Shown: one piece after another, positions 5,360-54,209 of the stretch | Layout of the letters: every line of letters begins with the position of its first letter | How positions within the stretch are numbered: the stretch's first letter is position 1 | Virus record (IMG/VR): IMGVR_UViG_3300025646_005482 | Coordinates: 64,001 to 128,000 of that record | DNA length: 64,000 nucleotides | DNA from: a virus | Reading direction: 5' to 3' (one strand) | Program-made: the position numbers and the translations under genes | Notes under the pieces: model-generated | Seen by the model: only the letters and a program-made list of their open reading frames with translations | What the model was told of the DNA's origin: nothing | The model's database searches: none

Positions 5360-6033
5360 TGGCTACTAAAGAAGTATTTTCGGTTACACCTGATTTCTTA
5401 TCAGTTAAAGAGTGTGATCAACTAGTAAAGTTTTGTGAAAAGTTTAAGGATCGTTGGGGAAATGGCGAAGTATCCGAAGATGGAATTGCGGGTCAAGCTG
5501 CAAGAGATCCTATCCGTAACTGCAAAACGTGGTTTATTCAAGGCGACTTCGATGAGAAAGATCAGAGAGAAGCCGAAAGATTTTACAGGATGATTGATGA
5601 AAGATTCAATCGTGTAAAATTAGAAATGGGTCTTGATAACTGGGTTATTACTGAGAGAGAAGCATTTCAGTATACACACTACGAAAAAAATGACGGATAC
5701 GGTTGGCATAAAGATACACATGATGACCCATACGACTCTGCAATGGGTACTGATCCAGCGCATGACGGTCTAAATAGAAAATTAAGTATGACTATTTTTC
5801 TAAACGATTTTGTTGAGTGGGAAGAAGGTCGCTTTGAAATAGAAAATGCATGGACTCATGGACCTAATGATCCTCATTATAGAATTCATCAGTTCCAACC
5901 AGATTATAGTGATCAAATCAGAAAGGGTACAGCAATTGTTTTCCCTTCATATGTCCAACATAGAGTATCGCCAGTACAATCTGGTGTACGTAAATCACTC
6001 GTCGCTTGGTATCTTGGTCCGCCTTGGGTTTAA
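5359..6033 (+). CDS. 2OG-Fe(II) oxygenase (prolyl-4-hydroxylase/PKHD-like)
   Basis: YGWHKD (HxD), RKLSMT, FPSYVQHRVSPV, RKSLVAWYLGP motifs. Confidence 0.9.
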   Translation: MATKEVFSVTPDFLSVKECDQLVKFCEKFKDRWGNGEVSEDGIAGQAARDPIRNCKTWFIQGDFDEKDQREAERFYRMIDERFNRVKLEMGLDNWVITEREAFQYTHYEKNDGYGWHKDTHDDPYDSAMGTDPAHDGLNRKLSMTIFLNDFVEWEEGRFEIENAWTHGPNDPHYRIHQFQPDYSDQIRKGTAIVFPSYVQHRVSPVQSGVRKSLVAWYLGPPWV

Positions 6034-6506
6034 TTGTTTAGCGGATTATCGAGTATAATCTGAATCTTCTCTTCGAGATCTTTTCTGGTCTGACGTAAAT
6101 CAGCATCGAGCGTTCTCATACGCTCGTTTACTTTCGACTCAATACCATATACATCATCACGCAGTTCGCGCTGTGTAGTATTTGTCTGATCGTCTACACG
6201 TCTAGCAAGGGTCTCGACTTTATCCATATCTTCGGTTAGTCTATCTTCTGCTAACTCAAGCTTCTTCTCAAGCTGATCTATCGTAGCGAGGAGTGATGCC
6301 ATTGATTCTGACTGTACTGCCAATTCTTGTTCTATATGTGACATGTCAGGCGCCACGTACTCCTCAATCTGCGCCTTCATATTACGATAGTCATTATAAA
6401 ATTCGAACGCACCCCATGCACCACCACCGAGAGTCGATAGTGCTGTAAGGACCATAAACATCTTACCGCCCTTAAATGTCATGCCAGCAAATTCAAATTC
6501 TGCCAT
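6030..6506 (-). CDS. Membrane-anchored coiled-coil protein (last gene of envelope operon)
   Basis: N-terminal hydrophobic helix MFMVLTALSTLGGGAWGAF followed by heptad-rich region. Confidence 0.8.
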   Translation of the reverse strand: MAEFEFAGMTFKGGKMFMVLTALSTLGGGAWGAFEFYNDYRNMKAQIEEYVAPDMSHIEQELAVQSESMASLLATIDQLEKKLELAEDRLTEDMDKVETLARRVDDQTNTTQRELRDDVYGIESKVNERMRTLDADLRQTRKDLEEKIQIILDNPLNN

Positions 6507-6618
6507 TTTTTTCTGCCTTTTCCGCTATGTATCGTTCGGTTGTTCTAATAATAATATAACCTTTGTCATCATAGACTGTATAAATTAATTGGCCTCCGCG
6601 AGTAACTTCTATGCTCAT
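6493..6618 (-). CDS. Hypothetical protein, 41 aa (not in ORF track)
   Basis: MSIEVTRGGQLIYTVYDDKGYIIIRTTERYIAEKAEKNGRI*; TAATG coupling to upstream gene. Confidence 0.55.
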   Translation of the reverse strand: MSIEVTRGGQLIYTVYDDKGYIIIRTTERYIAEKAEKNGRI

Positions 6619-7079
6619 TATAAAATACTCAGAAAGCCGGCAATGATCATACCAATAAACACAAAGAAGCCGCCGACAGCTGCTACGTCAATATAAAATG
6701 CTTTTTTACGGGCAGCTGCTTGTGCTGCTTCGATTCTACGTTGACGAATCATGCGTCTTTCTTTCATCATATCTTCGTAGAACTGTTGTTGACCAGTATA
6801 AAGCAAAAATTCATATAGTTCTTTTTCGAGTTGCTTTATCTTGTGTCGTGCTGCGGTGACTTGTAGTGCTTGTGCTTCTACACTACTTCCACCAAATAAT
6901 GATCCCACCATCGATGGGTTTTTTGCGTGTTGATCTGCCTCTGCTAGTTGTTCTTTCGCATCAAAGAATTTGGCAAATACATCGTACATATCCTGGACCT
7001 CTTGGCCCTTCTCAATCGCTCCTTTAATCATATTAAATGCAGAACCAGCCATCGACAACGCCGCGGCTATTTCTATCAT
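6618..7079 (-). CDS. Helical protein with C-terminal transmembrane anchor
   Basis: Amphipathic N-terminus, coiled coil, C-terminal TM FYIDVAAVGGFFVFIGMIIAGFLSIL. Confidence 0.8.
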   Translation of the reverse strand: MIEIAAALSMAGSAFNMIKGAIEKGQEVQDMYDVFAKFFDAKEQLAEADQHAKNPSMVGSLFGGSSVEAQALQVTAARHKIKQLEKELYEFLLYTGQQQFYEDMMKERRMIRQRRIEAAQAAARKKAFYIDVAAVGGFFVFIGMIIAGFLSIL

Positions 7080-7084
7080 TATGA

Positions 7085-7537
7085 TTACTCTCCGTTAGCT
7101 AATACACTCGGTGCCGTCGGAGCCTCAAACTGTAGGTTCCGAAGGTTTTGTATCTCCTGTTGTAACTTCAGCACCTCGAGCCTTTTCTTTTCCAACTCGA
7201 GTTTGTATAATACATTGCAATTGAGTCTTTCTTTCGGCGCTCCAATTGGTATGGTGATTCTACCATATACGCCGATGTCTCTCATAAAATCGTCTTGTCG
7301 GAAATTATAAGTTGGATCCATACCACCATAAAATGGATCATTCTGATTTAAAATTCCTACAACACCGAACTCTACGTTCGTTGATGAACCGATAGCAGCC
7401 GAACATTCCAAATCACCAGCCCGTATTCTATCTGACTGGAAACTCTGCGGAGATTGTGGAATTGCTAAGTTGATACCACTTGATTGTGCATATGTAAACA
7501 TCGGTAACATCAACAGCATTATAATTATTTTTTTCAT
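7085..7537 (-). CDS. Secreted protein with two amphipathic beta-strands, Cys pair and C-terminal coiled coil (candidate oligomeric outer-membrane channel)
   Basis: Signal peptide MKKIIIMLLMLPMFTYA; strands TNVEFGVVG and IGVYGRITIPIG; ATGA overlap with upstream stop. Confidence 0.7.
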   Translation of the reverse strand: MKKIIIMLLMLPMFTYAQSSGINLAIPQSPQSFQSDRIRAGDLECSAAIGSSTNVEFGVVGILNQNDPFYGGMDPTYNFRQDDFMRDIGVYGRITIPIGAPKERLNCNVLYKLELEKKRLEVLKLQQEIQNLRNLQFEAPTAPSVLANGE

Positions 7538-7911
7538 TTTACTTTTGAACATACCCTAGAAGAAACTAAACTCGCAGATAGTCTTTGTTTCTCATGTAAT
7601 GAGAGAGAACAAATGTAACGCACACGCGGTACATCTGCCTTTCTTATGTATATATTTATTTTTTTGCGCTCGAGATACTGTACATTTACTGTACGGCCAT
7701 CAGTCATGGCCCACGGTATATGTTCCCAATTATCGGTGTATACTTCGAAAGTGTAGTATGATACGTCTGCGCGAGAGTTCCAAAGAAGCATCTCAGCAAC
7801 ATAAACATCTTTGACGTATGACATTTTGAGTTCGGGATAGGTGGGAGTCCATGCGTGGGCCCATGCGGACCCACTCATGACTGTAAACAAGAGAGCCATA
7901 ATATAGCGCAT
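7534..7911 (-). CDS. Secreted beta-sandwich protein, possibly pilus-chaperone-like
   Basis: Signal peptide ending SAWA; alternating beta pattern; C-terminal Cys pair (YICS...RVCS). Confidence 0.65.
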   Translation of the reverse strand: MRYIMALLFTVMSGSAWAHAWTPTYPELKMSYVKDVYVAEMLLWNSRADVSYYTFEVYTDNWEHIPWAMTDGRTVNVQYLERKKINIYIRKADVPRVRYICSLSLHEKQRLSASLVSSRVCSKVK

Positions 7912-7913
7912 GG

Positions 7914-8411
7914 TTAGATCGCTATGCAGTTAGCCTGAACGATTGCAGTGTACGTACCGCCAGGAAGTGCTTTGCTAATACCATAGTCAGCTTCTGAACT
8001 GACTTTGAACCATGTGCTACCGGTATACTCGAGATCGATCTCAGTAGTAGAATCATACTCAATCTTACTCGTATCGTATGCAGACATCTGAGCATCAGAT
8101 ACGGCCTCTACCGCAGTAGAACCTGTCCATGCAATTGTATCTGAAAGTGCAGGACTTTGTGAGAAAGATGAAGGATGAGTGATGACCGCTTTATACGCGT
8201 TAGCGATAACAACATCATAACGTACAACAGGCTCTACACCACCATCAACTGAGTCAGTACTAAGTACGCTTGCTGAAGGGTTACCGTATACACCTTGCTT
8301 ATCAAGAGTGACAACACACTTAGACTCAACATTTCCTACGATAGGAGCATCGAGTGCTTGTGCGCTGATAGCTGTCATGGCGATTGCTGCTGCCAAAATT
8401 TTCTTGAACAT
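7914..8411 (-). CDS. Secreted pilin/fimbrial-subunit-like protein
   Basis: Signal peptide ending AQA; early IVGNVESKCVV strand with Cys; C-terminal PGGTYTAIVQANCIA resembling the G-x-Y-x-A-x-V terminal strand of chaperone-usher pilins. Confidence 0.65.
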   Translation of the reverse strand: MFKKILAAAIAMTAISAQALDAPIVGNVESKCVVTLDKQGVYGNPSASVLSTDSVDGGVEPVVRYDVVIANAYKAVITHPSSFSQSPALSDTIAWTGSTAVEAVSDAQMSAYDTSKIEYDSTTEIDLEYTGSTWFKVSSEADYGISKALPGGTYTAIVQANCIAI

Positions 8412-9292
8412 TACTGTTCTCCTTTGTATTGTGATTTGACTAACTTATCATGTAGTACATCTTGTGCAATAAGTAGGCTTCGACCCCGGTTATTTCTAGG
8501 CATCGAAGCATCTTTGAGTTGAATTGTTTCACGATATACTGTATCAGGCAATTGCTCATAATATAGATTAGAGAATTGGCTCATAGCCATTACTTGATTA
8601 TGCTTCGCTGTATCTTGAGCATTTTGTAATGATCTACTAGCTATACCTAATACTGTCTCGAGATCAACCTCTTCTTCATCGTCTTCTTTTTCCTCCATGT
8701 CTTTGCGCTCACGTTCCTCTTCATCTTCGTCGCGCATAGTCATCTCTCTATCAATCTCGTCTTGTACGAATGTATTATCAAGTGGATCTACAACTTCAAC
8801 CGATGGAATATCAGGCATTTGTACCTTATATCCTGGACATGATGGATCCGATTGCGGATCAAAACATGTGTCATACTGATATGTGTAAATAACTGACGGA
8901 TCAGTTACTTTACCATCACCTTCCCATACTATTTCTCCGTCTCCCCAATAATCGATAGGTATTCCACCAACACCTATCACTTTGAAGATAGAATTTCCTG
9001 GCAGACCTGTCCAATCATCTGTCTCTCGAAAGATGTATCCACCATCGACTGCATTCTCGTTTTGCACAGTAACAAGCAATGGATCCTCAGGATTTTTGAT
9101 TGTCGTATACCTATACAAAACTGTGTTGACTTGCAAACCAGCCTGCTGAGGCAAGAGATTACTCATGACCCAATTGTATCCATTCTGTGCAGCGTTGGTC
9201 GTTTGACCAAATACCTGTTCAGAGTAGGAGTAAGAGGGCGAGTATGCCAGCAAGACCGCCACCAGCCATGGCAGTTTTCTTTGTTTGCTCAT
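8411..9292 (-). CDS. Secreted protein: beta domain, CxxPxxDPxCPGY motif, acidic coiled coil
   Basis: Signal-like N-terminus LPWLVAVLLAYSPSYS; CFDPQSDPSCPGY; E/D-rich helix; TAATG coupling to the next gene. Confidence 0.75.
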   Translation of the reverse strand: MSKQRKLPWLVAVLLAYSPSYSYSEQVFGQTTNAAQNGYNWVMSNLLPQQAGLQVNTVLYRYTTIKNPEDPLLVTVQNENAVDGGYIFRETDDWTGLPGNSIFKVIGVGGIPIDYWGDGEIVWEGDGKVTDPSVIYTYQYDTCFDPQSDPSCPGYKVQMPDIPSVEVVDPLDNTFVQDEIDREMTMRDEDEEERERKDMEEKEDDEEEVDLETVLGIASRSLQNAQDTAKHNQVMAMSQFSNLYYEQLPDTVYRETIQLKDASMPRNNRGRSLLIAQDVLHDKLVKSQYKGEQ

Positions 9293-9827
9293 CTATTCCA
9301 TCCTTTGGTTTCTCTATTGTTTCATTATCAGCACCTGCAGCAAGCCACGCGGCTTTTGCTTCAGCACCGATCAAACCATCATATGGACATGGTGTACCAG
9401 CATTCATCATTGCATTGAATACTCTTTCGTCTGTACACATGAGTGACACTGCTGCCACTTTCATACCCATATCATATAGAGTTTTGGCATTCTTCAGTCG
9501 TTCACAGTTCTCATCAGTAAATTGTGTACCTGTAGAAATACCGAGAATTTGTGTTTGTACTGCTCCAGCTACACCAAAAGTACAAAGATCAGAGTTCGAT
9601 GTATTGATAGTTGGTGTAATCGCCGATGCAGGAGGCGACTTCAGTGTTGTGGTAGTATTACCGTTGGTCGTAATTGTGCTTGTAGTTGTCGACTCAGTTC
9701 TGATTAAATTAGGATCTACAGCTTCTTCTTGAGCGATTACAATTGCAGGTAGCCACAGAAAACCGAAAATGATGATAATGCAAAACAGAGTGACTCTAAG
9801 CAAGCTTGAGTCTAATTTATCAAACAT
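9219..9827 (-). CDS. Secreted Cys-containing protein with C-terminal membrane anchor (first gene of envelope operon)
   Basis: N-terminal hydrophobic segment, Thr-rich linker, four Cys in the mature region (DLC, ENCERL, LMC, TPCP), C-terminal GGGLAGILALLLLL. Confidence 0.8.
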   Translation of the reverse strand: MFDKLDSSLLRVTLFCIIIIFGFLWLPAIVIAQEEAVDPNLIRTESTTTSTITTNGNTTTTLKSPPASAITPTINTSNSDLCTFGVAGAVQTQILGISTGTQFTDENCERLKNAKTLYDMGMKVAAVSLMCTDERVFNAMMNAGTPCPYDGLIGAEAKAAWLAAGADNETIEKPKDGIDEQTKKTAMAGGGLAGILALLLLL

Positions 9828-9910
9828 ATTATTTTTACCTATAAAATTTTAAAATTGATTTTTAAATACATCAATATAGGCATACTGTTAGAGTGGCTCA
9901 TCCACATAAG

Positions 9911-9942
9911 TATTTATACAAACCTGATCCCAGGCCTGTCAA
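9911..9942 (-). promoter_or_regulatory. Composite promoter for envelope operon: TTGACA-N18-TATAAA overlapping late TATAAATA
   Basis: Reverse complement reads TTGACAggcctgggatcaggtttgTATAAATA. Confidence 0.65.
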
Positions 9943-10376: not shown

Positions 10377-10402
10377 GGCTCTTGTCAAATGGAGATATAC
10401 TT

Positions 10403-13462: not shown

Positions 13463-13711
13463 ATGACAGAAATAATCGACGATGCTCCGAAGGAGTTCGG
13501 AGCTCAGTCTTTTTTGTTCGAGATAGAAAAGCTACGAGAGAAAGATTCAATCGATTATATGGATGCCATCTTACATTATTGCGAAAGAAACGATATTGAG
13601 ATCGAGGCAGTGGCGCAGTACATTCGAAAGAATCTAGTGCTCAAAGCAAAGATCCAAGAAGAAGCCGAAGATTTAAACTTTTTACAGAAGACAGCAAGAC
13701 TACCTATATAA
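13463..13711 (+). CDS. 33: Late transcription co-activator gp33
   Basis: FEIEKL..YMDAILHYCERNDIEIE..LKAKIQEEAEDLNFL; 33-59-32 synteny. Confidence 0.9.
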   Translation: MTEIIDDAPKEFGAQSFLFEIEKLREKDSIDYMDAILHYCERNDIEIEAVAQYIRKNLVLKAKIQEEAEDLNFLQKTARLPI

Positions 13712-14280
13712 TGGAACCATTTGAGGCATTTCAGAAATATCTTGCGCTCAAGCTTCACTTCGATTCTGAATCCTATGACTACTTCAAGTACCGTGGGAAG
13801 ACGAATGCAAAGAAAGATAAGTTTGATTTAAGGCAAGATCGTTTCTTCTTCCATCGTCTATCAAAGAAAGATGATCTCGAGTTGTACCTAGCCAGCAATC
13901 TGTTTGAAAATCCAGATGCATGGGTAGGACAACTCCTTGATCAAGAATGCGTTGATAGATTTAAAGAAACAAAGAAACGTCATCAGTCCCTGAAATATCT
14001 TTTTCAGCAAGACATGTCACAGTTCGAGAGCTTAGATGACGCGCTCGTGGTTAAGAACGGTGATTACCCTAAGATACTCAACATGTACAACAGAAAGGAG
14101 ATCATGCCTGAAACCATGATAATCCTGAATGCTACGTGTAGGGTATTCTGGTATTGGAAAGAAAACATTTCTGATACTATTATATGGCCGAAGACAATGA
14201 ACAAGCTGTTGAAGTTTCAGCCGTTCGTGAAGTTTGATTTAGAAGATTATGTTGAACTCGTCGGCAATTTATATAAATAA
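13711..14280 (+). CDS. 59: Helicase loader gp59
   Basis: YLALKLHF..YDYFKYRGK..RQDRFFFHRLS; synteny. Confidence 0.9.
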   Translation: MEPFEAFQKYLALKLHFDSESYDYFKYRGKTNAKKDKFDLRQDRFFFHRLSKKDDLELYLASNLFENPDAWVGQLLDQECVDRFKETKKRHQSLKYLFQQDMSQFESLDDALVVKNGDYPKILNMYNRKEIMPETMIILNATCRVFWYWKENISDTIIWPKTMNKLLKFQPFVKFDLEDYVELVGNLYK

Positions 14281-37600: not shown

Positions 37601-40600
37601 CCTACTGACCCTGATATTACCAGTCAATTCGAATTAGATACACATGAAAATGGAAATTACTTTGGTCTTGGTCACCTACTCAAGAGAAATCTTGATAACT
37701 CGGTTACACTTTCGCCAACAATCCTAGTCGAGCTTGATTATATTACAGACGGTTGTGTGCATGGTCTGAAGACAGTCGATTCTTACAATCTAAACGACAG
37801 CTTAGAGTTGGCCGATCTGCGTAATAGTTCTTCTATGCACACATTAGAAATTCCTGAATTTAGAGATAAGAATGATAATTATTATGACTTAAGAGAGTGT
37901 GCTGACTTTAGACCATTTGCCGATTTGACAGCTGCAGATTCGACGACTGTAAGTGGTGCAACTACAGATCCTGCGAGTACAATTTCTTTTGCTAACTATT
38001 CTTCTTTCAAATATCCAAAGCCTGAAGGTGATTTTACCTACGACATCGAATACTATTTAGGTCGTACAGACGAAATTTCTATAAAAGACGACGGTACATT
38101 TGAATTTGAATTAGGTGCTACTGACACTGATACAAACAAAGCAAATAAATTGTTGTTGTTCAGATCTGAAGTGCCTCCATATCCTTCTCTTCCGGAAGCC
38201 GTATCTTCTGAAATTAAAGATATTTACGAAAGAAATCTTGTATGTAATGGCACACTCAATCTAAGGATCGCTGAATTTACTACTGTTATTAGTGAAGTAG
38301 ATCCTCAAGTCAAAACTTATACTATGGCAGAATTGGCTAGTCTCGAGCGTCGTGTTGAAGCTCTTGAATATATGGCCAATGTTTCAGAACTTGAAAACAG
38401 CACGATGGCAAAATCTATTCCGAGTTCTACTGACTCTACAGTAGAAAGATTTAAGTTTGGATTCTTTGTCGATAATTTTGAAGATAATTCATTAGCAGAT
38501 ATTGGCGCTGATTATTATGATGCATCTATATACGAATACGTATTGCATCCTGATAGAACATCGTTAAATATCGATTATGAAATTTCAACAGCATCTAGTA
38601 AGTATAGAGAAGGTGATATTATCACTTTCCCGCATACACGTAAACTATTATTGTCACAAGAAACGGCAACATACGCTCCGTTCGTAGAAGTGCCTGAAGT
38701 ACAGATTGTAGAAAACTGCGATTTCGAAACTAATAGAAATATGAAAAATGCTGGTGACAGCACGACAGTTTATAGTAAACTACAAAAAGTATGGGAAGAA
38801 TTTACGTTTGTAGGTGCAAATGAAGACGATGGTACTCAGCGATATATCGAACTGAAGTTCTTTAACCCGAATAGAGGCATCATTTACGAAATCATTCAAA
38901 GCACTAAGCCTCCTACTCAAAATACTAGTGAAACTGGTACAACAGTTCATGCACCTACTTCAACAGCAGTGACTGCATTGAGCGCGACTGATGATGCAAT
39001 TCCGCTTTATCAAAAGTTGTATCCAGTTAAAAATGCTAGAAATGCAATTTTGCCGTTTGCTACAAATCCATGGTTCCAGACACTGTCCGGTCCACAAAAT
39101 GTTAGTATTACAGTAACAGGATCTCCGATAAATTATAAATCTTATCAGGGTGCAGGCAAAATTAAGATTCCATACGATTATACAAAAGGTCGATACATCA
39201 CCGTACGAGTTCATAAGGGACCAGGCGGCAATGTATTCAACTTCGAACTGTGTTATCCTGCGGTTTCTGACGTAGATGCTATCTATGATGCTGGAGCACA
39301 GAATGTCAGGACGAGGCCAGCACCTTGTCCCAAAGGCCAATTCAAGTATGAGCGATGTGTAGGCTCTAACTTGTATGTTTATGGTTGTGATGGTAACTAC
39401 GGCACTCAAGTGAATAGAATTATTCGTAATTCACCTAAGTGTTATATTCCTGTGCCGCCAAAACCGCCAGAGCCTATCAAGAGCTGTCCAAAAGCTGGAA
39501 CATTTTATCGTTCTACATGCTCAGGTTCAACTCAGAAAACTTACACTTATACAGGCGCAAGAGGTGCAGGACCAGGTGGTTGTGTAGTTCGAGTTTCTGA
39601 TACGGTAATTTGTTCTAGTTCTTGTGGTTGTAGGCCTAAGCCTCCACCCGTTATTGTCAAGTGTCCTGTAAGGCCACCACCAATTGTACCGCCCGATGAC
39701 GGCTGTACTGCGACTACTAAGCGTGATTGTGATATTAAAGTGTCGACTCCGCCACCAGCACCACCTGCTCCACCGCCAGCCCCGCCGAGGCCGCCGGCGC
39801 CGCCGGTGACACCACCAGCCCCGCCGAAGCCGCCAAAGAAAATTTTGACCAGCCCGCCGATTCCAAAGTGGTTGGGACCCAAGATATGTTTCGTTGCTGG
39901 TACATTGGTCGATATGGCAGATGGAAGTCAGAAGCTAATTCAAGATATGCAAGTTGGAGATCTTGTAATGGCAAAAGACGGGCAGCATGACACCGTATCA
40001 TTTGTACACGATTTAGATGTAGCGTCGCATGTACTAGTGAAATACAACAATAGAATTACTTCTACGTCTGGTCATGCTTTCTTGACAACCGATGGATGGA
40101 AATCTCTAGATCCTGAAATATCGCGAGAAGTTTATGACGATATCGATGTAGGTGAGATACAGATAGGTGATCATTTTGTCAAGAGCGATGGCACCACGGA
40201 AGAAATAACTTCTATGGATCATTGGGTAGAAGAGTGTAAAGTCTATAACTTTGTTACTGAAGATACTCATACATATGTTGTAGATGGAGTTGTGACGCAT
40301 AATAAGCGACCGCCAGTGCGGATTAGTCCGGCGGGTGGTGGTAAAAAGACGACGGTTACGAAGCCGCCGGTTGTTCCGCCGCCTCCACCTCCTCCTCCGC
40401 CGCCTCCGCCCCCGCCGCCGAAGCCGCCGAAGAAGCCAACATTTGGTGGTGGTTGTGTACACGTAGACAGTTATCTGCCTATGGTTACGGAGCATCAACG
40501 ACAAGCGTGGCAGATGTTGCCTGGTTCAGCTATATTATTGAGTTCGGAAGATCTCGAGAATACGGTTGGAACTATCGAGAAAGTACATACTCGACCAGAA

Positions 40601-40915
40601 CCATGTGTCAGACTTGTCACGGAGTCAGGTATCAGTCTCGTATGTTCGCATTCAGCGCCAATTATGACAGAAAGCAAAGATTATCTCGATGCTCCTGAAA
40701 CATTGGGTGCTAGAGTAGCGGTCATGTCAAACGATGAGGCACGCTTCGAAGAAGTTACAGAAGTTGTTGATATGGGTATTCTTGAAGTTAGACCTATCTC
40801 CGCCGGAAATCAAAATTTCTGGGCTGGTGAAAAGGATGGAGAATACATCTTACACCATAACATTTGGTTGAGACATAAAGTTAACTCATCGTTCCCGACG
40901 TTAAAGAAGAGGTAA
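34667..40915 (+). CDS. VrlC-like (DUF4815-type) virion structural protein, N-terminal part, ending in Cys-rich and polyproline segments and two Hint domains
   Basis: PYFDDFD..YYRILFKP..VQVREVNQLQT, APGADRLK, RTYEESGNY, YTMAELASLERRVEALEY, RFKFGFFVDNF. Confidence 0.88.
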   Translation: MPLNTNLSSAPYFDDFDRDDNYYRILFKPATAVQVREVNQLQTLLQDQIEQFGDHILRAGTILEGCTFTYLNSMAFVKITDNALDGKAIDLNAINGLSANGQTSGKIGRITHVEDGFENDAAGNLKTLYIDYDDDDNNTADKDEFQAGEEIRIFARDDRLYDIKIANNATGALVFSNNDVVVITSAIEIAGTFTGSSADFSNTFSQGDTITGTTAAGKVIDMEVWFAANPATDSTQDETLILRVKPKATKMSGAAIDTDSWSVSVGDVLTHTEGGQEFKIVKMVGEGASAQITTTSQGQMIDATVTRGGTGYSTLPHISVYSQGASSAQLNILTMEAETWAIRLQAAQVTDTVGTGFGVEVSDGKIYQKGLFLNASKQFIMVDKYSNTPSDVSIGFDSTESIVNVFTDSSLYDNASGFLNEAAPGADRLKVSPSLVVKTVAEERAAGNFFPLVRFSEGKPYQQNKLTQYNKLGDLIAQRTYEESGNYVLDEFKAVSRSTLDFSESNTTFSYVIDPGHAYVHGYRVKTETNFVKDVSKGLVTQTETGLGRDLVYSNYFEVHDLAGSFNFNTGEEISLRDTAVNYITDYDHDTSDVTSALGGTEIGTAKIRSIDYGIGIKGTKTAVYKIHVFDVRMNRGKSVRDVKSIYASNGGGAAQDGIADVSLIFDNAKVFRGLVSTGIQSANGTYDPVAREEIGRLINPEDDGLVLPLSVAAKQITNYAYIYRTTLDGAAVAANGMITVPCEGSAGPTANTIFPYIGNLTDAEENEIIVIPKQDIVSTTTVGGSGFDYANVAITVTTPAGTEANHYVLTSGGSESFLTDFRVGDWIYEDTSAGTPVAQITSIAGQNQMTVRTRSGAFGAAPGSGNYGIYRYYPKDMPLPTGTRTGTTAADAYASVSADRRTMYVHTGTAMSTAHQFVVYFNQLHNNTKVSLTTRRKRYVKLTTAGQWPVTGKCVGISGAIRLHAVYNGTNVDGSGNPTDPDITSQFELDTHENGNYFGLGHLLKRNLDNSVTLSPTILVELDYITDGCVHGLKTVDSYNLNDSLELADLRNSSSMHTLEIPEFRDKNDNYYDLRECADFRPFADLTAADSTTVSGATTDPASTISFANYSSFKYPKPEGDFTYDIEYYLGRTDEISIKDDGTFEFELGATDTDTNKANKLLLFRSEVPPYPSLPEAVSSEIKDIYERNLVCNGTLNLRIAEFTTVISEVDPQVKTYTMAELASLERRVEALEYMANVSELENSTMAKSIPSSTDSTVERFKFGFFVDNFEDNSLADIGADYYDASIYEYVLHPDRTSLNIDYEISTASSKYREGDIITFPHTRKLLLSQETATYAPFVEVPEVQIVENCDFETNRNMKNAGDSTTVYSKLQKVWEEFTFVGANEDDGTQRYIELKFFNPNRGIIYEIIQSTKPPTQNTSETGTTVHAPTSTAVTALSATDDAIPLYQKLYPVKNARNAILPFATNPWFQTLSGPQNVSITVTGSPINYKSYQGAGKIKIPYDYTKGRYITVRVHKGPGGNVFNFELCYPAVSDVDAIYDAGAQNVRTRPAPCPKGQFKYERCVGSNLYVYGCDGNYGTQVNRIIRNSPKCYIPVPPKPPEPIKSCPKAGTFYRSTCSGSTQKTYTYTGARGAGPGGCVVRVSDTVICSSSCGCRPKPPPVIVKCPVRPPPIVPPDDGCTATTKRDCDIKVSTPPPAPPAPPPAPPRPPAPPVTPPAPPKPPKKILTSPPIPKWLGPKICFVAGTLVDMADGSQKLIQDMQVGDLVMAKDGQHDTVSFVHDLDVASHVLVKYNNRITSTSGHAFLTTDGWKSLDPEISREVYDDIDVGEIQIGDHFVKSDGTTEEITSMDHWVEECKVYNFVTEDTHTYVVDGVVTHNKRPPVRISPAGGGKKTTVTKPPVVPPPPPPPPPPPPPPPKPPKKPTFGGGCVHVDSYLPMVTEHQRQAWQMLPGSAILLSSEDLENTVGTIEKVHTRPEPCVRLVTESGISLVCSHSAPIMTESKDYLDAPETLGARVAVMSNDEARFEEVTEVVDMGILEVRPISAGNQNFWAGEKDGEYILHHNIWLRHKVNSSFPTLKKR
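39887..40303 (+). other. Hint (intein-like/BIL-type) domain 1
   Basis: CFVAGTLVDMADG..IQDMQVGD..TSGHAF..VYNF..HTYVVDGVVTHN followed by Lys. Confidence 0.9.
40454..40861 (+). other. Hint domain 2 (divergent)
   Basis: GGG|CVHVDSYL..CVRLVTESGISLVCSHSAP..EVRPIS..FWAG..YILHHN followed by Ile. Confidence 0.8.
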
Positions 40916-53100: not shown

Positions 53101-53430
53101 ATGGCCGAAGAAGAAAAAGAAGTAAAAGGCTTTCATCCAGCAGATACTAATGGTGACGGTAAAGTCAGTGAAGAAGAGCATGCAATGTATATGGAGTTTA
53201 AGAGAAAGGAACTAGAAGATGCCGATGCAATGCGAGACGCACAACGAAATATGGCGTGGTTCTCTCTTGCTGGTATGCTTTTGTATCCCGCCATGGTTGT
53301 TGCTACTGATCTTGCTGGGTTAGAAAAAGCATCGAACATTTTAGGTGATATGGCGCCGACCTATTTTGTTGCAGTCGCTGGTTTAGTTGCAGCGTTCTTT
53401 GGCGCACAAGCATGGAGCAAAGGTAAGTAA
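53101..53430 (+). CDS. Holin-like two-TM membrane protein with an N-terminal EF-hand
   Basis: DTNGDGKVSEEE loop; two hydrophobic helices; directly upstream of spanin pair. Confidence 0.65.
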   Translation: MAEEEKEVKGFHPADTNGDGKVSEEEHAMYMEFKRKELEDADAMRDAQRNMAWFSLAGMLLYPAMVVATDLAGLEKASNILGDMAPTYFVAVAGLVAAFFGAQAWSKGK

Positions 53431-53431
53431 T

Positions 53432-53827
53432 ATGCCGTATTTGATTTTATTATTGTTGCTTGGATCGATGGGCGGAGGCGCTTGGTATTATTATACCGAT
53501 ACACAAGAGCGCCTTGCAGTCCTTCGTGATAACAATGCAAAGCTAATGATGGTGGCTGAGACTAATCAAGAAACCATCAACAGTCTGCAACGTGACTATG
53601 AACTCGCACAAGAGAACATGCTCGCACTTGCAGAGAGGGCGAAAGCAGCAGAAGTGTATCAAGACGAATTGGCTGCAAAGCTACGTCGTCATGACCTCAC
53701 ACGACTGACCCTACAAAAACCTGGACTAATTGAAAAGAGAGTAAACAATGCTACGGACAAGATTTTCTCAGAGCTTGAAGTCGATTCTGGCGCTGAGCCT
53801 GTTGTTCCCGCTGATCAGCCTGAATAG
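53432..53827 (+). CDS. Inner-membrane spanin (Rz-like)
   Basis: N-terminal TM MPYLILLLLLGSMGGGAWYY, long coiled coil, KPGLIEKRVN motif. Confidence 0.8.
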   Translation: MPYLILLLLLGSMGGGAWYYYTDTQERLAVLRDNNAKLMMVAETNQETINSLQRDYELAQENMLALAERAKAAEVYQDELAAKLRRHDLTRLTLQKPGLIEKRVNNATDKIFSELEVDSGAEPVVPADQPE

Positions 53828-54209
53828 TGGTTGTGCAAGCGTAGAACCAACTGTCGTAGTCAAGACCGACTACGTCGTCAAGGATATTCCTATCCAACCC
53901 CGCCCTAAACCTATGAATCTGCATAGGGTAAAGTTTTATGCTGTGACTCCTGAAAACATGGATGAGTTCCTCGTTCGGTTTGAAGAAGAGAGTGGTACTA
54001 CTGTGTTCTTTGCATTGAGTGTTCCCGATTATGAGAACATGAGCCTGAACGTAGCAGAACTGCGTCGATATATAAACCAGCAGAAAGCTCTAATTGTATA
54101 TTATGAGGAATCTATCGAGACGATGATCAGAGAAACCCCAGAAGATACAGAAGAGGTAGTGCAAGAAGGAACAGATTCTCTGTTTGACCTTTTACCAAAA
54201 TTTGATTGA
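53748..54209 (+). CDS. Outer-membrane spanin lipoprotein (Rz1-like)
   Basis: Lipobox LNSGC, Pro-rich segment, DYENMSLNVAELRRYINQQKALIVYYE; overlaps i-spanin. Confidence 0.8.
   Translation: MLRTRFSQSLKSILALSLLFPLISLNSGCASVEPTVVVKTDYVVKDIPIQPRPKPMNLHRVKFYAVTPENMDEFLVRFEEESGTTVFFALSVPDYENMSLNVAELRRYINQQKALIVYYEESIETMIRETPEDTEEVVQEGTDSLFDLLPKFD

Follow-up and report, generated by a model that had tools for sequence, protein, structure and literature searches.

The DNA analysed here is a stretch of 64,000 nucleotides (nt), hereafter the window, which corresponds to bases 64001-128000 of one linear IMG/VR record (IMGVR_UViG_3300025646_005482; 160,330 base pairs (bp), CheckV completeness 89%). Our subject is a block of eight close-packed genes on its minus strand, five of which encode proteins with signal-peptide-like N-termini. 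The source is an uncultured aquatic T4-like myovirus; among the genes of the window are those for a gp6-like baseplate wedge protein (phrog_219, 4e-160), a gp5-like hub/lysozyme and a tube cap, and PhoH is encoded immediately to the left of the block. The genes are named by the length of their products in residues (g202 encodes 202 residues, and likewise for the others), and are listed below in the order of their reading.

9911-9942, minus strand: promoter region, with TTGACA at 9942-9937, an 18-nt spacer and TATAAATA at 9918-9911
9219-9827, minus strand: g202, signal peptide, four-cysteine domain and C-terminal membrane anchor
8411-9292, minus strand: g293, signal peptide, beta-rich domain and conserved C-terminal domain
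7914-8411, minus strand: g165, signal peptide and predicted beta-sandwich
7534-7911, minus strand: g125, signal peptide and a short mature protein
7085-7552, minus strand: g155, signal peptide, beta-hairpin and leucine-zipper-like helix
6618-7079, minus strand: g153, helical protein with a C-terminal membrane helix
6493-6618, minus strand: g41, small soluble protein
6030-6506, minus strand: g158, N-terminal membrane anchor and coiled coil

Promoter and products of the block

The initial annotation of this DNA had described eight close-packed genes opposed to their neighbours, and this is borne out by the open reading frame (ORF) coordinates and by the flanks, both of which lie on the plus strand (a 2-oxoglutarate (2OG) oxygenase gene ending at 6033 and the next gene starting at 10382). 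The junctions from g202 to g158 measure -74, -1, +2, -19, +5, -1 and -14 nt, and the orientation of the block is opposite to that of the structural genes. The end of g202 and the start of g293 share 74 nt (9219-9292) in different frames, coding there for the membrane anchor of g202 and for the signal peptide of g293; overlaps of like length recur in relatives (71 nt in locus L014, for example).

For the comparisons that follow, 234 related viral contigs were gathered, the best 80 of the 234 were used for locus counts, and alignments of 28-36 homologues were built for each protein. The element TATAAATA is a T4-type late -10 box and lies 83 nt upstream of the g202 start. Of 53 distinct upstream regions, 33 have it no more than 200 nt ahead of the g202 homologue, and it is also kept in regions that share no other similarity with one another. 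The genome holds 22 plus-strand and 4 minus-strand copies, and many of these precede, by 25-60 nt, large genes that lie downstream of the window and are presumed to be structural. Judged from these promoter sequences, late transcription of the block appears well supported.

Signal-peptide-like N-termini with small residues at -3 and -1 are found in g202, g293, g165, g125 and g155, and are conserved across 30-36 homologues each. The same five products have invariant cysteines (in alignment numbering, C81/C107/C130/C146 in g202, C142/C151 in g293, C31/C161 in g165, C100/C120 in g125 and C49/C111 in g155), and since they combine Sec-type signal peptides with invariant cysteine pairs, they should fold in the oxidising periplasm. 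The alignments of homologues thus confirm the five signal-peptide proteins with paired cysteines named in the initial annotation, and its broader claim that the genes are real and co-transcribed and that their products leave the cytoplasm is also supported. Its group of membrane proteins at the end of the block needs revision: g153 has a C-terminal helix and g158 an N-terminal anchor, but g41 has no membrane segment, which revises the count to five exported proteins, two or three with a membrane anchor and a single small soluble protein.

The first protein, g202, consists of a signal peptide, a Thr/Ser/Asn-rich stretch, a four-cysteine domain of ~90 residues, an acidic linker and a Gly-rich hydrophobic C-terminal tail (residues 184-202) with no cytoplasmic tail behind it. 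The four-cysteine domain is nearly invariant, with ~70 invariant alignment columns, and the protein matches phrog_20531 (6e-17). g202 is tethered in the inner membrane via its C-terminal helix, as g158 is via its N-terminal anchor. We considered g202 as a rhombosortase substrate with a GlyGly-CTERM sorting signal (TIGR03501), which we take to comprise a C-terminal Gly-Gly motif, a membrane helix and a basic tail. This was rejected, with no match in NCBIfam at E <= 1, a tail that ends in Leu residues, and a basic cluster in 0 of 36 sequences. In g293, the signal peptide is followed by an N-terminal beta-rich domain with one C..CPGY knot, an Asp/Glu-rich acidic linker and a conserved C-terminal domain that ends in H..LV.SQY. 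Distant homologues of 460-810 residues retain the C-terminal domain and have different N-terminal domains.

The predicted structure of g165, a signal peptide and a beta-sandwich, has a predicted local distance difference test (pLDDT) score of 86, with residues 31-164 above 90. The sandwich is complete in the model, with the invariant C31 and C161 on its first and last strands, and the protein has a conserved N-terminal P-I-x-G-x-V segment, modelled at lower confidence, and a C-terminal G-x-Y-x-A-x-V-x-A-x-C strand. Foldseek found no match to this model at E <= 0.001 and nothing among viral structure models (BFVD); its list of weak matches comprises MSCRAMM adhesins, cohesins, carbohydrate-binding modules, CfaB, the PapG pilin domain and FimG, at template modelling (TM) scores of 0.38-0.40. 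The nearest ESM Atlas fold outside the family itself is a DUF4402 cluster (TM 0.56).

The mature part of g125 has ~105 residues and a conserved C-terminal S-R-I-C-S-K-I-K motif. Its predicted mature N-terminus is an invariant His within the motif A-H-x-W-T-P-T-Y-P (35 sequences); a copper 'histidine brace' was considered and dropped, as a second invariant His or another metal ligand is absent from the alignment. Only unnamed viral clusters were found among its ESM features, the nearest named one being PapD_N at 0.83, a lead only, and no relatives longer than g125 came up in a search aimed at them. In g155, the signal peptide is followed by a conserved beta-hairpin (55-68 and 89-102, 14 + 14 residues), whose second strand alternates hydrophobic and polar residues, and by a C-terminal leucine-zipper-like helix of 29 residues (111-139). 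The protein matches phrog_37374 (2e-6), and its AlphaFold2 monomer reaches a pLDDT of 62; this low monomer confidence would fit an obligate oligomer.

Hydropathy places a single C-terminal membrane helix, a hydrophobic 19-mer at 132-150, in the helical protein g153, and assigns no membrane segment to g41, a soluble ORF of 41 residues. The g158 anchor (16-34) is weakly hydrophobic and rich in Gly, Ala, Ser and Thr, contains the motif G-G-G-A-W, and has a Kyte-Doolittle value of 1.35; the remainder is a coiled coil of ~115 residues that ends in a conserved L-D-N-P-L.

Searches of Pfam, NCBIfam and PHROGs with all eight proteins returned coiled-coil noise and unnamed PHROGs only. The PDB sequences, searched with profiles from five of the family alignments, gave nothing below E 0.07, and g125 has no PDB match. 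Pfam had no informative match for any member of the g165 and g125 alignments, and none for g125 and its 34 relatives. By megablast, the window DNA has no match among cultured phages, nor do g165 and g155 by tblastn, and our literature search found no paper describing the eight-gene cassette.

Conservation and an older core

Hundreds of contigs from uncultured aquatic phages have the block, conserved behind the T4-type late-promoter box. The order g202-g293-g165-g125-g155 is kept in ~75 of 80 IMG/VR loci (tblastn), and identities to the window proteins range from ~40% to 96% across related loci. This five-gene core is usually followed by g158 (60 loci by tblastn, ~80 by jackhmmer), and the two other genes are optional, with g153 present in 29-32 of the related loci and g41 in 14. 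A divergent form of the module was seen on a 5-kilobase (kb) JGI contig (L112:2344-4154), where a 170-residue protein precedes the g165-like gene and an SNase-domain gene follows the g155-sized gene.

The families differ in breadth. That of g202 has at least 8000 clusters at 90% identity, all metagenomic, none named and none with a Pfam match, and its core domain extends to phages of Pelagibacter, Roseobacter, Achromobacter and Ralstonia. g165 has a narrow family: 1.84 billion representatives yielded 109 clusters, most of them fragments, and the four distant clusters of full length that were looked up all lie on short metagenomic contigs.

The initial annotation had suggested looking for the same gene order in bacterial genomes. 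A scan of one genome per species across 185,579 bacterial and archaeal species found 22 loci, all on contigs of metagenome-assembled genomes (MAGs). The labels of these contigs (L083-L104) include Melainabacteria, Bifidobacterium, Bacteroides and Methanobacteriota, and since these taxa are incompatible, the contigs are most likely mis-binned phage DNA. A profile search for a g165-like gene found it in 0 of 400 genomes of one bacterial class. Within the genomes searched, the block looks phage-only.

A smaller set of genes is shared more widely. In five loci (L095, L097, L098, L099 and L101), the gene that comes after a g202-like gene encodes a secreted protein of 500-810 residues. The four longest of these proteins share with g293 only the C..CPGY knot and the C-terminal domain (H..MV.SQY), and in three of the four the knot stands in tandem, in up to ~12 copies; the protein of L101 matches in the knot region only. 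The long proteins have unrelated N-terminal domains, with long Ser/Thr/Pro linkers in between. In three of them (L097:9117-11225, L098:754-3195 and L099:10516-12657), the knot repeat reads Q-Q-C-S-x-N-P-L-Y-x-x-x-C-P-G-Y and the Ser/Thr/Pro linkers measure 150-250 residues; these large proteins also have a W-D-D-S-Y...F-P-F-Y-G motif, which we take to be nidogen-like. Pfam found nothing in the large g293-like proteins or in the long forms of g202.

The same arrangement exists in cultured pelagiphages: in HTVC115P (gp54/gp53), HTVC023P (gp45/gp46) and Mosig (00202/00201), a g202-like gene is followed by a gene for a protein of 460-610 residues. In HTVC115P gp53 the terminal motif is similar by eye, and the profile match is not significant. 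Homologues of g158 were found by jackhmmer in HTVC115P (gp49) and in roseophage CRP-810 (gp51). g165, g125 and g155 are absent from this older core. On these sequence comparisons, g202, a g293-like protein and g158 make up a core common to myoviruses and unrelated podoviruses of different hosts, with g165, g125 and g155 as additions.

Two GenBank products of CRP-810 (L105) look wrong: gp51, entered as 'lysozyme', is an anchor/coiled-coil protein of the g158 type with no lysozyme domain, and gp53, entered as 'OmpA family', has a g202-like domain and no Pfam match at E <= 0.01. The idea of a g202 domain fused to a peptidoglycan-binding domain was dropped, because the annotations of gp51 and gp53 were not borne out by domain searches.

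Pilus-like features and neighbouring lysis genes

The initial annotation had read the block as a pilus- or fimbria-like operon without an usher. The absence of an usher holds for the whole record, in which profiles of Usher (PF00577, at E <= 1), Secretin, CsgG and PapD_N had no match; no protein of the block exceeds 293 residues. For comparison by hhalign, we assembled a reference alignment of six chaperones from annotated records (FimC, Caf1M, MrkB, PefD, FaeE and PapD/Pix) and one of eight subunits (FimA, FimI, FimF, FimG, MrkA, the fimbrial protein of the F4 (Fae) cluster, FaeF and Caf1). The proposed PapD-like protein, g125, is half the size of a chaperone, scored a probability of 1.6% against the six PapD-like chaperones and has no Pfam match. 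The proposed pilin, g165, has no Pfam or PDB match, and reached 26% against the eight chaperone-usher pilins over the signal peptide and first strand (G-x-V...C) only. Its model is a confident beta-sandwich of immunoglobulin (Ig)-like kind, and its Foldseek matches to pilins are weak. With no usher, no two-domain chaperone and no family match for g165, the block is probably not a classical chaperone-usher pilus; a single-domain PapD_N-like fold for g125 may be kept as a lead only. The more general parts of the annotation fared better, in that the products are not recognisable virion parts and are most naturally read as acting in the envelope of the infected cell.

Genes of the lysis type recur near the module. 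Among 75 loci with a distinct g202, such a gene lies within 300 nt of the block in 17 and within 6 kb in 28; the 17 comprise 11 EF-hand/two-transmembrane (two-TM) proteins, 5 T4-type lysozymes (PF00959) and 1 GTA_holin_3TM protein. A rough estimate of chance, made with no formal test, is ~5% adjacency for a genome of 200 genes with about five lysis genes, and since the loci are related, the excess is suggestive and not proof. In many loci the gene for the EF-hand/two-TM protein lies inside the module or directly on either side of it, and in the minimal cassettes L095 and L099 it stands between the g293-like and g158-like genes. The T4-type lysozyme is directly upstream of the module in several loci. 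In Mosig, the gene for the GTA_holin_3TM protein comes immediately before the g202-like gene, and in HTVC023P a peptidase M15 gene lies three genes downstream of the g202/g293-like pair. Peptidase M15 is an enzyme class known among phage endolysins.

This genome has lysis-type genes of its own, which lie elsewhere:

53101-53430: EF-hand/two-TM protein of 109 residues, no family match, directly upstream of the spanin pair
53432-53827: Rz-like i-spanin (phrog_739, 7e-13)
53748-54209: o-spanin-like lipoprotein of 153 residues, overlapping the i-spanin (phrog_812, 2e-11)
13467-13955 of the genome (L108:3468-3956), outside the window: SleB-like cell-wall hydrolase whose N-terminus resembles a signal peptide (endolysin family phrog_938, 1.5e-23)

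The EF-hand/two-TM protein is the presumptive holin, and the SleB-like hydrolase is probably the phage's endolysin, encoded far from the holin and spanins. The i-spanin shares with g158 its architecture and the G-G-G-A-W anchor motif, and the two anchors have the same Kyte-Doolittle value. Homology between g158 and this i-spanin was considered and dropped: hhalign gave 32%, with the similarity confined to 16 anchor residues. A second cluster of envelope proteins lies outside the window, at 39177-40718 of the genome (L107); it encodes lipoproteins of 143 and 63 residues, two tiny membrane proteins and a multi-pass membrane protein of 135 residues (phrog_21122).

Possible functions and known systems

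Export, conservation and late timing of the block are solid, as is its phage-only distribution within the genomes searched; its function is inferred. We tentatively favour a phage-only, late, inner-membrane-anchored periplasmic assembly tied to the lysis programme, a reading that we hold quite possible if somewhat short of an even chance. The anchored g202 and g158 and the secreted proteins would form an assembly fixed in the inner membrane and reaching across the periplasm. Its core would consist of g202, g158 and g293, the last docking through its conserved C-terminal domain. The T4-like phages would add the beta-sandwich pair g165/g125 and the oligomeric hairpin/coiled-coil protein g155, the oligomer of which perhaps touches the outer membrane. 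Such an assembly may act at the end of infection with the lysis programme, either loosening or breaching the outer layers after the wall is cut, or setting the timing. The recurrence of lysis genes next to the module speaks for the end of infection more than for an adhesive organelle.

Several observations weigh against this reading. Since the proteins have no detectable homologue of known function, the role can be read only from their context and architecture. The holin-like/spanin cassette of this genome is ~43 kb away from the block, and with a SleB-like endolysin and a two-component spanin of its own the phage does not obviously need an extra lysis device. The identity of the EF-hand/two-TM protein as a holin is itself something we infer, given that it has no family match. 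The neighbourhood of lysis genes could mirror a shared late accessory region, and the related loci are not independent. There is no o-spanin-like lipoprotein among the eight proteins, and g158 has no significant homology to Rz families in PHROGs or by hhalign. It is possible, although we regard it with some doubt, that the block represents an undescribed phage-exclusive trans-envelope machine of marine and freshwater phages. This could be a lysis effector or a lysis regulator of a new class, with g202/g293/g158 as its core, or else a chaperone-subunit assembly that needs no usher and forms a periplasmic or surface structure on the infected cell.

A different reading keeps the pilus-like features and takes the block for an usher-less chaperone-subunit fibre, periplasmic or on the surface of the infected cell, that serves aggregation or 'sibling capture'. 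g125 would act as a half-chaperone that binds the subunit, g165 as a pilin-like subunit capped or polymerised by strand complementation, g293 as a tip or adhesin-like protein and g155 as a small outer-membrane pore. The order and sizes of the genes resemble a minimal fimbrial operon, and the top probabilities among the weak Foldseek matches of g165 include the PapG pilin domain (0.96), CfaB (0.94) and FimG (0.92). The DUF4402 cluster nearest to g165, the PapD_N cluster nearest to g125, the partial hhalign match of g165 to pilins and its two terminal motifs point the same way, and the curli clusters of pelagiphages are a published precedent (PMC7029224, PMC9599517). Still, we consider such a fibre unlikely: usher, secretin, CsgG and PapD_N were not found in the record, g125 amounts to a single domain's worth of residues with its low hhalign score and no longer relatives, g165 is modelled complete with no need of a partner, the older core does without g165, g125 and g155, and the supporting Atlas scores are all in the 'lead only' range.

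The periplasmic location would also suit a guard that stops or detects superinfecting phages, or hides the receptors of the infected cell and its debris, and that may signal lysis inhibition to the holin in the manner of T4 RI. The N-terminal domain of the g293-like proteins is highly variable between phage lineages, a pattern expected of a host- or competitor-specific binder. The g158 anchor, weakly hydrophobic and rich in Gly, Ala, Ser and Thr, is reminiscent of signal-anchor-release segments like that of T4 RI, and the module adjoins a holin-like gene in many loci; moreover, T4 Spackle, Imm and RI, T5 Llp and P1 Sim are exported phage proteins. However, exclusion functions are usually early and small, and here a block of six to eight genes stands behind a late-promoter box. 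g202, the best conserved of its members, hardly varies between phages whose hosts are very different, which suggests a universal target rather than a specific receptor, and no homology to known exclusion proteins was found in Pfam, PHROGs or NCBIfam; a guard of this kind is in our view unlikely. Least of all do we expect virion or ejection proteins whose hydrophobic N-termini mimic signal peptides. The late-type promoter would suit them, and in HTVC115P the related genes come after tail genes (tail assembly chaperone, glycine-rich protein). Four consecutive proteins with canonical cleavage motifs, invariant cysteine pairs in all five exported proteins, the C-terminal membrane anchor of g202, the lack of a match to any structural family of PHROGs and the orientation of the block against the structural genes make this very improbable.

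Whatever its role, g202 stands for a very abundant and wholly uncharacterised phage function that reaches phages of SAR11, Roseobacter and Betaproteobacteria. If it belongs to a trans-envelope machine, that machine would be among the commonest uncharacterised functional modules of aquatic phage genomes. The genes around the module in related pelagiphage and roseophage records are nearly all annotated as 'hypothetical', and host lysis by these phages is little annotated; a module that lies beside holin-like and lysozyme genes and outside the lysis families of PHROGs and Pfam could fill this gap. If instead the usher-less fibre is true, it would be a new way of assembling surface structures. The cultured carriers of the g202/g293-like pair (HTVC023P, HTVC115P, Mosig and possibly CRP-810) make either outcome testable.

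Compared with the two-component spanins (lambda Rz/Rz1, T4 PseT.3/PseT.2) and the cassettes in which they occur, the block shares predicted late expression, the anchor and long periplasmic coiled coil of g158, conserved cysteines in the periplasmic partners and a frequent place beside holin-like and lysozyme genes. g158 has the N-terminal anchor and periplasmic coiled coil of an i-spanin, a likeness of architecture only and not of homology. In contrast to spanins, the block has no outer-membrane lipoprotein, five extra exported proteins and no match to Rz by sequence or PHROG, and this genome keeps a separate canonical i-spanin/o-spanin pair at 53432-54209. None of the eight proteins has the conserved lipobox of an o-spanin; sites of the A-x-A type end the signal peptides, and C16 of g202, the one cysteine to come early, is not conserved.

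The chaperone-usher pili (Fim, Pap, CFA/I, Caf1 and the archaic Csu) are likewise encoded by operons of small Sec-exported beta-rich proteins, and g165 resembles their subunits in its Ig-like sandwich, its first-strand cysteine and its G-x-Y-x-A-x-V C-terminal strand. They differ from the block in having an usher and a two-domain PapD-like chaperone (PF00345 + PF02753, ~200-230 mature residues). Furthermore, the sandwich of g165 is self-sufficient in the model, with a predicted disulfide that joins the N- and C-terminal ends, whereas in type 1 pilins the disulfide lies between the A and B strands. T4 RI antiholin, Spackle, T5 Llp and P1 Sim are like the block in being exported to the periplasm of the infected cell, where they act on lysis timing or superinfection, but they are single small proteins, not homologous to those described here, and do not form a conserved block of five to eight genes.

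A further parallel is offered by the curli (type VIII secretion) clusters encoded by pelagiphages: such curli-type cassettes of marine myoviruses and podoviruses provide exported envelope proteins that are absent from the hosts, and their function is debated between aggregation, exclusion and an open pore (PMC7029224, PMC9599517). The block resembles them as a multi-gene phage cassette of exported envelope proteins, but has inner-membrane-anchored members and different folds. There is no CsgG in the record, and the eight proteins have no curlin, CsgF or other Pfam match, CsgF not having been searched separately. The cassette is separate from the pelagiphage curli clusters, and is an undescribed set of families.

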